Of a stretch of 64,000 nt of DNA, positions 1 through 5,784 are shown in pieces (position 1 is the stretch's first letter; each line of letters opens with the position of its first letter). The notes under the pieces were generated by a model. That model worked only from the letters and a program-made list of their open reading frames with translations. It ran no database searches and was not told where the DNA came from. This stretch comes from an uncultured Nitrososphaeraceae archaeon (lineage in GTDB: Archaea; Thermoproteota; Nitrososphaeria; Nitrososphaerales; Nitrososphaeraceae): NCBI GenBank assembly GCA_963825865.1, contig CAWGVG010000003.1, forward strand, positions 1 to 64,000, written 5' to 3'. The position numbers were made by a program, and so were the translations under genes.

Positions 1-482
1 AGCCTGCAAATGCAGATATAGGTGGAATAAATTGCACCATGACTCCAACATTTGGTTGTAACTGAGAAACAGAAGAAGCACCAGGTCCGCTTGTAATGAC
101 TGAAAGAATCCCAGAACCTATTAACCCAGCAAATATCATAGTTAGTGTTGTGCGCAGCACCTCCTACATTCATTCCAACAAGATGAATCCACGCAAGTAC
201 CAGTTTGAATCCACGAATACTCTTTCTCATATCGATTGCAAGGTGGTGGTAAAAAGTCGCTGTGACTGCTATTGCCACTACCAATATCATATAAAAAATA
301 TACCCAAGAAAGAACCATTTAGCTGGACCTTCAAATGACAAAGAGAGGAACTGGATAATATTGATTTTAGAAGAGAATAGTATTTGAATTGAAACAATTG
401 ATATAGTGAGTCCTGTAATTATTGCACCCTGAATTATTGCAGATATTATAAACCTGTTACTCCAGACTCCATGGATAGACAT
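1..482 (-). CDS. Conserved thaumarchaeal multi-pass membrane protein, runs off the left edge, one frameshift near 155
   Basis: Manual translation from ATG at 482: MSIHGVWSNRFIISAIIQGAIITGL...WFFLGYIFYMILVVAIAVTATFYHHL...LAWIHLVGMNVGGAA, then after a frameshift TTLTMIFAGLIGSG. Several hydrophobic helices. Missing from the ORF track because no stop occurs before the edge. Confidence 0.7.
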   Translation of the reverse strand, partial: MSIHGVWSNRFIISAIIQGAIITGLTISIVSIQILFSSKINIIQFLSLSFEGPAKWFFLGYIFYMILVVAIAVTATFYHHLAIDMRKSIRGFKLVLAWIHLVGMNVGGAAHNTNYDICWVNRFWDSFSHYKRTWCFFCFSVTTKCWSHGAIYSTYICICR

Positions 483-1260: not shown

Positions 1261-1566
1261 TTCTTCGTTTATACTCGCCATTATAAAATTTTTGATATAA
1301 ATTGCACCATTCGTCATTGCTAAGGGTTAAATTTTCAAGGATATCTTTAATTTTTCCACATGATGAGAACGCACGGCAACCTGAGTTGCTTGTAACATTG
1401 TTGTGATGAAAATCTGATTATGACATAGATTATCTACACTGAAATTCTCAACTACGTTTGGAGGACATAAGGCCTTTCCACAACCAAAACTTTGTGAGAT
1501 GTATTTTTATGAATATAGGTTTGAACCGCAAGACTATCTACCTAGCATCTAGACGGCCTAATGTTT

Positions 1567-2178
1567 CTATTTGGATGTATAAGCTTTGTAAATCTCCCCC
1601 ATATCGGGAGCAACATATTTCCAATCATCACCGAGATTTGATACAAGTTCAAATCGTTCCTGTGTATTGGGATGTAATAACTTATAGACATTCTCCCCTA
1701 CAGATATTTTGTTAGGACCAGTTATGGAAGTTATCTTTGCTGTTACGTTCATCGTATAACCAAGTATGTCAATTTGTGAGCTCCTGTCGTATCCATATTG
1801 AACAACTACATTTTCCCCTTCGTCTATACCAATTTTTAACTTCAAGGCAGGGTAATCATATTTACTTAATATTGGATTAAGTCTAGTAGTTACAACAGTA
1901 AGTATTGATTCTGCACAACGAACTGCCTTATCACAGGTAAGATATTTGTTAAAACCGGAAGGAAAGAATGCTATGACTGCGTCGCCCACGTACTTCAGTA
2001 CAAATCCGTCATAACTTTCCACTACAGAGGACATCTCATGTGAAAAAGCCCTGATAATTGTAACCAGTTTATCTGCCGGCAGTGTCATGCTCATTTTAGT
2101 AGAGCCAACTAGGTCTACAAACATAATAACTAGTGATATCTTGGAACTTACGTATTTACGAAGAAAATCCTGACCACG
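1567..2178 (-). CDS. Class III adenylate/guanylate cyclase catalytic domain, probably the C-terminal domain of an FDH-cyclase fusion
   Basis: Motifs FVDLVGST (metal Asp), KYVGDAV (Lys plus second Asp), KIGIDEG and DILGYTMNVTAKI. The frame stays open upstream of Met 2124 (RGQDFLRKYVSSKISLVI) up to the T8 tract at 2179-2186 with no start codon. Confidence 0.9.
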   Translation of the reverse strand, partial: RGQDFLRKYVSSKISLVIMFVDLVGSTKMSMTLPADKLVTIIRAFSHEMSSVVESYDGFVLKYVGDAVIAFFPSGFNKYLTCDKAVRCAESILTVVTTRLNPILSKYDYPALKLKIGIDEGENVVVQYGYDRSSQIDILGYTMNVTAKITSITGPNKISVGENVYKLLHPNTQERFELVSNLGDDWKYVAPDMGEIYKAYTSK

Positions 2179-3230
2179 AAAAAAAAGGCGTAGCTGTAAC
2201 TGGGACTCACCACCTTGCCATTATCCACAATAAGAAATTCTGCCTCGATAGGAAGTCCTCTCATATAACGGGTAAGACTTCCTTTCACTCCGTCAGCGTA
2301 CCGGCTTTGCGCTTCAAGAGTTGTCCCGGAGTAATGAGGTACCATCGCATGATTAGGCATGTGCCGCCAGGGATGATCTATTGGCGCAGGTTCAGGAAAC
2401 CACACGTCACCCGCATAGCCTGCCAGATGACCTTTCTCCAATGCTTCCACCAAGGCTGAAGTATCAACGATTTTTCCTCGTGCACAATTAACTAAATATG
2501 ATCCATTTTTCATGCTGAAAAGTAGGTCATGGTTAAACAGGCCTTCCGTTTCCGGTGTTAATGGAGTGGTAATACTAATGACATCGGATTGTTCAACTAG
2601 TTGTTGTAATGGTGTATATCGTATACCAAATACAAATTCCTCTGCAGTTGTCAGTCGAGGGAGGTTATAGTATAAAATTTTGACGTCAAATGCCTTCAGT
2701 AGTTTGCACACCCGTTGTCCAATTCTACCTGCCCCTATAATTCCAACAACCTTGTCTTCCAAATCATGAGAGTAAGCCGCAATTTCTGCAATATCCCATC
2801 TACCATCAAGAACCTGTTTGTATGCGGGCATATAGTTTCGCACAAGTGCCAAAATATGCATTACTATCTGTTCTGCGACACCTACGACGTTGCTTCCAGT
2901 AATCTCAGCCACAGTTATACCTCGTTCTGCCGCTGCTTGCAAATCGACGTGATCAGAACCAACACCAGCAGTTAGAATGAGTCGTAGCATGGGTGCCTTC
3001 GAGATTCGTTCTTTCGTGATGTAGGCGGGCCAAAAAGGAGTAGTGATCAGTATCTCTGTGGTAGATAGATGTTCATCAAGCTTATGCTCTTTGTCAGTCA
3101 ATACAACGAATTCATGGCCCTGTTTTTCGAGAAAATCTCTCAAGCCCAACGCGTTCTCCGCACAACCTAACAAGCCTGGGTTGTTTTTTGCTATCTCTCC
3201 GCCAGGGTAAAGAATCGCTAAAATTTTCAT
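2148..3230 (-). CDS. fdh: Metal-independent NAD(P)-dependent formate dehydrogenase
   Basis: LLGCAENALGLR, TTPFWPAY, TAGVGSDHVDL, GSNVVGVAE, GAGRIG, NCARG, GYAGDVWFPEPAP and PHYSGTT motifs of the FDH branch of D-2-hydroxyacid dehydrogenases. Confidence 0.93.
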   Translation of the reverse strand: MKILAILYPGGEIAKNNPGLLGCAENALGLRDFLEKQGHEFVVLTDKEHKLDEHLSTTEILITTPFWPAYITKERISKAPMLRLILTAGVGSDHVDLQAAAERGITVAEITGSNVVGVAEQIVMHILALVRNYMPAYKQVLDGRWDIAEIAAYSHDLEDKVVGIIGAGRIGQRVCKLLKAFDVKILYYNLPRLTTAEEFVFGIRYTPLQQLVEQSDVISITTPLTPETEGLFNHDLLFSMKNGSYLVNCARGKIVDTSALVEALEKGHLAGYAGDVWFPEPAPIDHPWRHMPNHAMVPHYSGTTLEAQSRYADGVKGSLTRYMRGLPIEAEFLIVDNGKVVSPSYSYAFFFVVRIFFVNT

Positions 3231-3796
3231 ATGAAATCTATTCTGAGTAGATTAGTTAAATCTTCTTAGAATGATGATTAAACAAGGAGAAATGACCATA
3301 CTACCTGAATCTCATAAAGTTTGACGGAGTTTTAAGAGTAAAACGTTTGACCAGCCGTTTCTCTTTTATCTGTATTCATTTCGTCATCCGCTCTAATCCC
3401 ATATTGTGTTTTCAACTATAGCAAACTGTGTTTGTCAATTGTCAATAGATGAATGTTCCATCTGCTTGGTAAAAGAAAAAACCTAGAACGTACAAAATAG
3501 GGGCTCATAATTGAATTGAGACATTCGGAGCATATGTAACTAACGATTCTTTGTTTAAACGTGCCTACGATGATTAAATTATTGCCAGATAAACCTTCTA
3601 TTAGCACCGATATTTGTATATTAAAACATCTTGCGACGGTAGTGTAACTTTAAATGCTAACGGTTATATCGGAGTCTAAAAGCTAAATTCATGGCTCATA
3701 TACATGAAAATATCTAACACGTCTGGGCTTCCGTGGTCCATAATTGAACAAATTTGCGTATAGTACCAACCATTCGTCAATTTTTTTGTAATTAAT

Positions 3797-4841
3797 AGAT
3801 CTCTTGCGTAATTAGGAGCTATAGTCTAACACCCTACTTGTTTTAGCCGTCTTCTTAGATTGAAATGCTGTCAGACTGTATAACTCTGAAGTTCAGGAGA
3901 CGGATATTATATCAGATACGTTATTGTACTTCCTTAATCTGTTTCTAAATTTAGTACCCATTATTCCAAACTTTTTGATCTTACATATGGTATGTTCTAC
4001 TATGATCCTTAGCCTAGAATGATTCTTGTTGTAAGTTCTTTCATCACATGAAAGCAATGTACCCTTTTTCTTTTTGATACCAAGTACAGACTTTACAGTG
4101 GGAAAGTCCTTTTCAATGCCAAGATAACCAAGATCAACTATGTTTTCAACTTGTGATGGAGTTATAGAATGATTGTGTTTGTAAATGTCATAATCATGTT
4201 TTCTTCCACTTCTGTGACCTGTCTTATGCAGTATCAATCCTTCACTGTTTACCATCAATTGTGTCTTGACAGTATGTTTCTTCTTTCTCCCTGAATAGTA
4301 ACTCTTCCTTCTTCTTTTGTTCTTAGGTCTTGGAATTTCTTGTTCTGTAGAGTCTATGAAAGCCTTGAATCCAGGAAAGTACTCTTCTACTTCATCTATA
4401 GTTCTTAATCTCCTAGTACGTTTGTATATCTTCTTTGGCAATGGAATACACTCCTTGATAAGTGGTTCCATCATTGATATATCTCTACAAACATTGCTTT
4501 GATCAAGGTCAAACAGAAATCCTGATAATGTATATGTAATGTATAATCTGTAGTATACTAGAAGCATAACGAATCTTTCTTTAACTTTAAGCTTAAATGG
4601 TCTACCAGCACCTATATCCCGTATTCTCGTCCTTGATAGAAGACGTCTTCTTTCGTGCTCTTCGTAGTTATGTTCAATTTCGTTACAAATGGATTCAAAT
4701 TCAGATACAGTTACTCCGGTAAATGACCTGAATATCAAAGGTTTCTTACATAATTTGCTATAGGACATCAAAGAGCTTGTCAGATAGATATCCTATGTGA
4801 AGAGGAATATAGCTCTAAGCTTCTAATTACACAAGAGATCT
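3797..4841 (-). mobile_element. IS5-family (ISL2-like) insertion sequence, complete
   Basis: Terminal inverted repeats AGATCTCTTGCGTAATTAGGAGC and AGATCTCTTGTGTAATTAGAAGC (reverse complement of the right end). Flanked by an apparent 3-bp AAT target duplication. Encodes a DDE transposase. Confidence 0.85.
3893..4771 (-). CDS. DDE transposase (HTH + DDE_Tnp_4 type), last residues frameshifted
   Basis: FRSFTG N-terminus, LVYYRLY..LSGFLF.LDQSNVCR HTH, FIDSTEQ, YSGRKKKH, HDY, DLGYLG and RIIVEHTI. Confidence 0.9.
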   Translation of the reverse strand: MMSYSKLCKKPLIFRSFTGVTVSEFESICNEIEHNYEEHERRRLLSRTRIRDIGAGRPFKLKVKERFVMLLVYYRLYITYTLSGFLFDLDQSNVCRDISMMEPLIKECIPLPKKIYKRTRRLRTIDEVEEYFPGFKAFIDSTEQEIPRPKNKRRRKSYYSGRKKKHTVKTQLMVNSEGLILHKTGHRSGRKHDYDIYKHNHSITPSQVENIVDLGYLGIEKDFPTVKSVLGIKKKKGTLLSCDERTYNKNHSRLRIIVEHTICKIKKFGIMGTKFRNRLRKYNNVSDIISVS

Positions 4842-5784
4842 AATAATGATGTATGCAGTAGTTGCATTTAGTTACGCTGGTTACGGTATATGGAGAGTAG
4901 GGAATACTTTCCTGCTAATGAGATCATGACATGATCACAAATAGATCAACGCTTCTTTGCGACAGTTACTTTAAAAATCAAGATTTACCGATCATTTTTT
5001 TGAGACAAAAGTGACTATTTTTCAATCTATAGTCTTCCATATGATGTAACTGCTGTAACTACTGTGACGGGATTCTTAATCCATTTTCCAGTTTTAAGAA
5101 TCAGTCAAAATCTTAATTTTATCAGGGATGTCGTAGCATGTTCAACCTTCGCAGGAAGTATTTTTATTGTCTCCAATATAGTATTCTTTTTGATATTTGG
5201 TAAATGGTATATAGATGTAAGATCTATAGGTATAATATCTGCTGTCTTTATGTTCTATACTCTTAAAGAGTTTGATAAATATATAACAAAATATTTAAAA
5301 TAACTTTATAATTGCCTCTACTCCCAACGACTATTTCCATATCATACATATACTTATGAGTACAATTTCATCGTGTTCTGGGTAAAAACAGAAGAACAGT
5401 ATCACCAAATGGCTCACGGCAATAATAAGGACTCTGGTTTGATATTTTTTGTAATGCAATGCAGCAAAACTATTCGGTCTAGGAATCCCAAAAAATCTGC
5501 TGTCTCTTCTTCAGAGCTGACAAATGATATGAATCTAAATGATGACGGCAGTGAATCAATTTACTTAAACCCCAAGCTAAAATTCTGAATAAATCCCAGA
5601 AAGATTTGTAATATATTTTTTAACATTTTGAATCGGCTTGTAATATCAATATAATAATAAAAACCATTGAAACCAGATCCAAGGTTGTGAAATATAGACA
5701 GACAAACTCGATAAGCTGAAAATCAAATACAATCTGAGTATCGTGCCATACTATAGCAAATCTTCTAGTAACATCGGTAGTATT

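Follow-up and report, generated by a model that had tools for sequence, protein, structure and literature searches.

A recent fusion of formate dehydrogenase and a class III nucleotide cyclase in Nitrososphaeraceae

Class III nucleotide cyclases with an enzyme-type domain on their N-terminal side are known from mycobacteria, as in LipJ/Rv1900c (NF058673, PDB 1ybt), and the P4-ATPase–guanylate cyclase likewise places such a domain ahead of its cyclase (PMC13466520). The gene reported here has the same layout, with a formate dehydrogenase (FDH) in front of a class III cyclase. Unlike it, those two proteins draw on other enzyme families and have old origins. The LipJ model NF058673 matches only the cyclase part of the new gene, with 26 bits against a cut-off of 800. 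Within the family Nitrososphaeraceae itself, a DUF892–cyclase fusion (P0291 type) attaches a foreign domain no more than a few residues from the point where FDH meets the cyclase, in place of the linker helix. It is found in 23 published genomes among the 238 from the family, with the joint in 18 of 19 loci scanned; unlike the FDH fusion, it is old and diverse (42–79% identity to P0291) and has a ferritin-like input domain. Its loci in our set are L146–L165, and a truncated copy lies in the genome that carries the FDH fusion studied here (G000:C41:5969–6673).

The individual parts of the gene have close relatives as well. The FDH half shares its whole domain, including Asn114, Arg251, His299 and Ser301, with NAD-dependent FDHs (NF005750/PRK07574; D-2-hydroxyacid dehydrogenase subfamily; PDB 3jtm, 2nad); the fusion adds the C-terminal cyclase and differs at N189 and E280, neither of which is fusion-specific. 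The parent of the cyclase half is found among the PRC-barrel cyclases of Nitrososphaeraceae (P0136 cluster, 189 members). The catalytic domains are 96–98% identical and hold the same six catalytic positions, whereas about 260 N-terminal residues, including a conserved helix, are replaced by FDH in the fusion, and selection is relaxed. The homopolymer at the joint has a likeness in Thermus thermophilus dnaX, where slipping on nine identical bases in an in-frame gene gives short products (PMC1088944), as a slip in the fusion would; the run in the fusion, by contrast, is of T, is recent and is not strictly kept (L094).

FDH–cyclase is a real gene with a new domain combination, a recent birth and horizontal spread. 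A search of the open-access literature gave no description of such a fusion.

The fused gene and its reading frame

We analyzed a 64,000-nucleotide stretch of DNA from an uncultured Nitrososphaeraceae archaeon (the window), in which the fusion lies on the minus strand (Table 1). The fdh ORF (3230–2148, 360 aa) reads ...YSYA near its 3' end, with GCC and eight T (2186–2179) followed by C. From 2220 to 1570 the cyclase frame contains no stop, and its earliest start codon, the Met at 2124, falls within the first strand of the domain. Adding one T to the run yields a single 554-aa ORF. All of this agrees with the preliminary description, which had noted an FDH running into T8, a cyclase frame with no start before Met 2124 and a continuous protein of about 550 aa after insertion of one T. 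By profile score, the FDH half reaches 471.5 bits against NF005750 (cut-off 329) and the cyclase half 57 bits against PF00211 (cut-off 21.9).

Table 1. Features of the fusion locus (window positions)
Feature	Position	Strand	Basis
Upstream flank common to only some copies, nested breakpoints	3274..3528	.	
Upstream DNA from free fdh parent; purine run and TTTAA box 30 nt before ATG	3231..3273	-	
NAD(P)-dependent formate dehydrogenase, codons 1–349, minus only the parent's last two residues (KT)	2184..3230	-	NF005750, PDB matches, 95–97% nt to free parents
Junction T run, T8 in the window and T9 in most other copies	2179..2186	-	
Short out-of-frame tail read with T8 (360-aa FDH)	2148..2183	-	
Catalytic domain of a class III nucleotide cyclase (203 codons plus stop), starting at short helix RGQDFL	1567..2178	-	PF00211, model, Foldseek, 95–98% nt to parents
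3' DNA from parent cyclase locus	1512..1566	-	Likeness to parents stops at 1512
Downstream flank common to only some copies, nested breakpoints	1345..1511	.	

On the upstream side, likeness to the parent fdh loci stops at 3271–3273. On the other side, the continuation of the parent cyclase locus appears in sequencing run X7 as a loose end at 1515–1517. The TTTAA box is kept in each of the 12 copies whose 5' end is intact and, judged by the archaeal consensus, is with the purine run a putative BRE/TATA of a leaderless transcript; a sigma-70 promoter scan, unsuited to archaea, gave no match. RNA run X15 contains separate contigs on each half and none over about 2134–2240, such contigs giving neither level nor strand.

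The T8 of the window is probably a consensus error, as several observations indicate. First, the same assembly holds a second copy, 98% identical, with T9 and an intact 554-aa ORF (contig C24, L031:7566–9230). Second, we checked the T count in contigs of sequencing runs. Of four runs compared, out of 24 listed, three gave contigs for the window (X1, X7 and X15) and X10 gave none; two of the three carry the additional T: X1 at full depth on one contig covering 1348–3508, and X7 on one contig at 15.4 of 41.5 depth. Run X7 also contains both unfused parent loci, as loose ends. Third, a junction-pattern search found all eight metagenome loci in frame (L088 and L095 being the same locus), seven with T9 and one, L094, with the run broken by a synonymous TTC (TTC TTT TTT). 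Finally, the window's assembly is rich in indels, with rpoB in four pieces. An IS neighbouring the fusion has a broken ORF in 26 of its 42 copies in the assembly, to which real decay contributes. We therefore regard a long-read homopolymer slip as the probable source of T8, and a real −1 allele as possible but distinctly less likely. Some doubt about a pure sequencing error comes from two JGI proteins of unknown platform, P0134 and P0256, that have the T8-type tail.

The fusion is thus read in frame, at the DNA level, as one 554-aa protein. The preliminary description had favoured a constitutive fusion interrupted through a homopolymer error, and the T9 copy on C24, the run contigs and the metagenome loci support that preference. 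Its other suggestion, a U_UUU_UUC slippage site, has become unnecessary. We rejected programmed −1 frameshifting because the common form is in frame, at all eight metagenome loci, and L094 interrupts the slippery run without losing the frame.

The end of C24 overlaps the start of the window contig (window 1–3784 against G000:C24:33998–37800, 98% identity), and the two are probably strain haplotypes of one locus. An ORF at window 3–482 is frameshifted in the window and intact (186 aa) on C24. Window 3794–4845, where C24 ends, is occupied by an IS5-type element, of which the assembly contains about 42 near-identical copies.

The T run could still matter in another way. Replication slippage between T8, T9 and T10, RNA polymerase slippage or termination at the run would release a short-tailed free FDH alongside the fusion. 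Both slipped frames stop within about 10 codons, as such a switch would have it, and the −1 form occurs in three of five long-read copies and in two JGI proteins, against six fused, among those listed. Runs of nine A or T are slippage-prone in many bacteria (PMC1088944). We nevertheless consider a switch quite unlikely. The long-read copies are those expected to drop a T: among three long-read loci found by the junction-pattern search in two other genomes, one is in frame and two are one base short, as against none of the eight metagenome loci. The T run is moreover a by-product of the joint, absent from both parents, and the slippage evidence cited is bacterial.

The many indels in the window's assembly might also suggest that the joint is an assembly chimera, absent from cells. 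This is refuted, with next to no probability left to it: 13 loci share the joint, in separate assemblies built from long or from short reads, and one X1 contig spans it.

Origin of the joint and spread of the gene

The preliminary description had proposed a search of protein databases for the two-domain architecture in Nitrososphaeria. Across 238 Nitrososphaeraceae genomes, the fusion is found in G000 (the window's genome, genus g1) and in G073 and G085 (genus g2). FDH is typically free: of the 30 fdh loci that match best, 27 are unfused and end one or two codons past YSYAF. Both parents survive at separate loci in four genomes of genus g5 (G179, G201, G206 and G208), one being a free FDH of 351 aa and the other an approximately 460-aa cyclase whose N-terminus comprises two repeats (PRC-barrel according to sources) followed by a conserved helix. 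Parent-to-fusion DNA identity is 95–98% (95–97% for the fdh half, 95–98% for the cyclase half). Relatives thus do carry separate fdh and full-length cyclase genes, a finding that the preliminary description had linked to a chance deletion junction with a cyclase pseudogene; the first part stands, but the junction is not one with a pseudogene.

The joint is known to the base. It runs from fdh codon 349, which supplies three T, through six T found in neither parent, into the cyclase at RGQDFL. Ku genes are present in three of five genomes searched, the donor-type G201 among them, so end joining with untemplated bases is a plausible origin. We also considered an RNA-template origin by template switching, prompted by the six T, and set it aside because the transferred unit includes a TATA-like box upstream of the likely start, an argument that depends on the predicted promoter. 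In genus g16 (L033:7275–7360; also L048, L051 and L055), a short stretch starting within about 30 nt past the free fdh resembles the end of the same PRC-barrel-like protein.

The fusion is young and appears to be of single origin. One origin is indicated by the identical joint and by a single 90% cluster of 530 members in which fused, free and −1 forms are mixed. Both domains occur in only one of the 120 best 90%-clusters drawn from either half, and both halves are matched by eight of 420 proteins examined, all from that cluster. Out of 73,964 representatives, the 150 best included no independent or older FDH–cyclase fusion.

Copies of the gene share a unit of about 1.8 kb, comprising about 40 nt upstream with the TTTAA box at −30, the ORF and about 58 nt past the stop. 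This unit is located in many unrelated flanks across three genera. The 13 loci diverge at nested points outside the unit. Counted from the joint, the nine upstream breakpoints fall between about −1092 and −1354, beyond the ATG at −1053, and the seven downstream ones span +679 to +950, past a stop whose last base is +612. Within the ORF, fdh has one breakpoint (L070) and the cyclase none, although two contigs end in the cyclase. In a rough test with intervals picked post hoc, zero of 12 flank breakpoints in the cyclase has p 4e-4, and intergenic DNA may break more readily. Past about 300–400 nt, the different contexts of the fusion have no neighbouring gene in common.

Identity among the copies is 94–99%, far above the roughly 74% between the rpoB regions of their host groups (G000, G073/G085 and G201), and the flank of L095 matches g5 genomes at 97–98%. 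On these values the fusion has passed among three genera, barring misbinned contigs. G085 holds one copy on a 2.2-Mb contig and one on a 613-kb contig. Duplication and transfer are known in general within this archaeal group (PMC7603488, whose main text mentions neither cyclase nor formate). Of the candidate vehicles, transposon or IS cargo was rejected because the ends are ragged and nested rather than fixed ends with a transposase, and viral carriage because the viral contigs searched had no junction match.

Other small genes show a similar pattern. At L095:329–4300, adjacent accessory genes are also common to different genera at 82–88% identity, and transfer of small accessory genes therefore seems common in Nitrososphaeraceae. 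Near two fusion copies lies a stand-alone gene for a tandem PRC-barrel-like domain, the part that the fusion lost (L068:12447–13019 in G073, 207 nt away; L069:8312–9006 in G085, about 415 nt away). G073 has only two copies of this gene and G085 about six, and it was not seen at the other fusion loci. It is a possible trans-acting partner, or else cargo shared with the fusion.

The two halves and their selection

The FDH half keeps the sequence features of its family in nearly all copies. In the PDB it matches FDHs best (E 3e-115). Criteria for FDHs include the PF[HW]P motif with the active-site Asn, Arg, His and Ser (PMC6303947, PMC10127272), and 11 of 12 fused copies keep them as P65-F66-W67-P68 with N114, R251, H299 and S301; the remaining copy, L089, lost both prolines of the motif. 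N189 stands in place of the NAD-selecting Asp, in the free parents as well, which hints at NADP or dual cofactor use. E280, rather than the Gln of most FDHs, stands beside the catalytic His in all 12 fused copies, against Q in all three parent loci. The two positions bear on cofactor choice and pH range (PMC10127272, PMC6303947). Glu at position 280 also occurs in the free FDHs P0127 and P0010, and we rejected Q280E as a fusion-specific adaptation on the strength of P0127.

The cyclase half is predicted to fold. Its structure model has a pLDDT of 88.7, and the top Foldseek matches are Cya2, CyaB and CyaC (E 1.5e-14, TM 0.7). Class III cyclases use two metal-binding Asp residues and a Lys/Asp pair for adenine. 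We placed the metal and adenine positions by alignment to CyaC/CyaB; D373, K413, D417, D488, N495 and K499 are unchanged in all 10 fused copies compared, in keeping with the earlier observation that these residues are retained with Lys at the usual Arg position. N495 and K499 stand where the transition-state helix usually has Asn and Arg. The Lys (K499) is family-wide (invariant K in 46 rows), not a sign of decay. In the Nitrososphaeraceae cyclases L106–L145, Lys always occupies the catalytic Arg position, and Ser is frequent where Asn would be expected.

What the fusion lacks is the parent's linker. By a strict pattern, a conserved helix precedes the domain in 31 of 40 plain cyclases; the fusion has lost this long helix and retains only the short one (RGQDFL) before the catalytic core. 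Sensor-regulated cyclases have a helical linker and a short helix before the catalytic core, and in an engineered series of sensor–cyclase chimeras three of 15 were regulated (PMC5995499). The parent's long helix bears a resemblance to the transducer element of such cyclases. Its loss argues against a tuned coupling of FDH and cyclase.

Selection on the fusion is purifying but relaxed. We counted distinct changes against the consensus, without L095, whose sequence equals that of L088. The start of FDH is missing from L070, and the cyclase set excludes L090, L092 and L094. The FDH half has 43 silent and 32 replacing changes over 11 copies (omega about 0.33, against 0.14 in FDH parents at three loci), where neutrality would give 52 replacing changes; none of 200,000 draws was as low. 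The cyclase half has 28 silent and 43 replacing changes over nine copies (omega about 0.56, against 0.10 in cyclase parents at four loci), again with 52 expected if neutral (p 0.012). It is more relaxed than its parents (p 3e-4), as to a lesser degree is the FDH half (p 0.055), and the two halves differ in omega (Fisher p 0.033). These omega values are inflated by young polymorphisms and read errors, and trees of the copies are weakly resolved.

Could the gene then be a neutral or decaying chimera, copied by general shuffling of accessory DNA and free of any selected function? Individual copies do look damaged: L070 is 5'-truncated, L094 has an in-frame duplication of about 105 nt within the cyclase half (real or an assembly error), L089 lacks the PF[HW]P prolines and some copies are −1 forms. 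The flanks around the copies are IS-rich, too. Yet both halves show fewer amino-acid changes than neutrality predicts, and flank breakpoints crowd outside the ORF and promoter. We consider decay very improbable.

A different possibility, raised in the preliminary description, is that the intact enzyme acts as the input domain of the cyclase. Binding of NAD(P)(H) and formate would open and close the FDH catalytic domain, and a helix would pass this movement into the cyclase, altering dimer activity and giving a cAMP read-out. The joint falls exactly at the domain boundary that the DUF892–cyclase fusion also uses; because that old fusion replaces the same helix at the same point, the joint looks like a workable socket. 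A model of residues 331–554 shows one helix running through the joint at residues 345–358 (the full-length fusion, in a single-sequence structure prediction, has a pLDDT of 40). Invariant catalytic residues, a kept frame and a cyclase free of breakpoints fit a sensor as well. Potential receivers exist, since all five genomes searched have cNMP-binding domains. These lie in frames of about 560–590 aa (e.g., G000:C20:4942–5202), candidate cAMP receptors.

Against a sensor, the gene is very young, its cyclase is far more relaxed than the parents, and it has lost a conserved element of a kind that matters for coupling. FDH C-termini are located in the outer catalytic domains of the dimer, and this placement may keep the two cyclase domains of one dimer from meeting. 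The hosts, besides, already have between 11 and 15 matches to class III cyclases in each genome; that Nitrososphaeraceae carry additional enzymes of this class is on record (PMC13577086). On balance, we doubt that the fusion is a sensor and hold the idea as a minority possibility.

A proposed reading: a spreading enzyme with a cyclase attached

The reading we lean towards, with modest confidence, is a horizontally spreading formate dehydrogenase that carries a folded, poorly coupled cyclase. In a g5 lineage, end joining would have linked a free fdh, promoter included, to the catalytic part of one of the lineage's own PRC-barrel cyclases, with six untemplated T filling the joint. Identity and flanks show that the chimeric gene has since reached many unrelated sites and crossed among three genera. 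We infer that it is kept mainly for the supply of FDH activity; the fusion is the only NF005750 match over the cut-off in G000 (82% complete), G073 and G085. The cyclase domain would ride along folded, probably making some cAMP, and would be poorly coupled to FDH because the parent's linker helix is gone.

Two sets of observations weaken this preferred reading. The cyclase is non-neutral, its catalytic positions are fixed, it contains no breakpoint and the T run is mostly in frame; all four fit real cyclase use as well as they fit selection for folding. In addition, selection on the FDH half is itself looser than on the parents, and both motif prolines are gone from one copy.

FDH–cyclase offers a clean, datable case of archaeal gene birth, in which the parents survive at high identity beside a precisely defined joint, and in which inter-genus spread and relaxed selection can be measured. 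It also bears on archaeal cAMP synthesis, which is poorly understood; an annotated class IV enzyme of Sulfolobus, for example, turned out to be a triphosphatase (review PMC10249747). The soluble fusion and its parents form an easy set to assay. At its most ambitious, and we think this rather doubtful, the gene may be a signalling protein at birth: an FDH placed in a reusable cyclase socket, coupling formate or NAD(P)H to cAMP and sweeping horizontally through soil ammonia-oxidizing archaea of three or more genera, while the T9 run sets how much free enzyme is made relative to sensor. If the coupling works, the fusion would be a natural formate/redox-to-cAMP converter.
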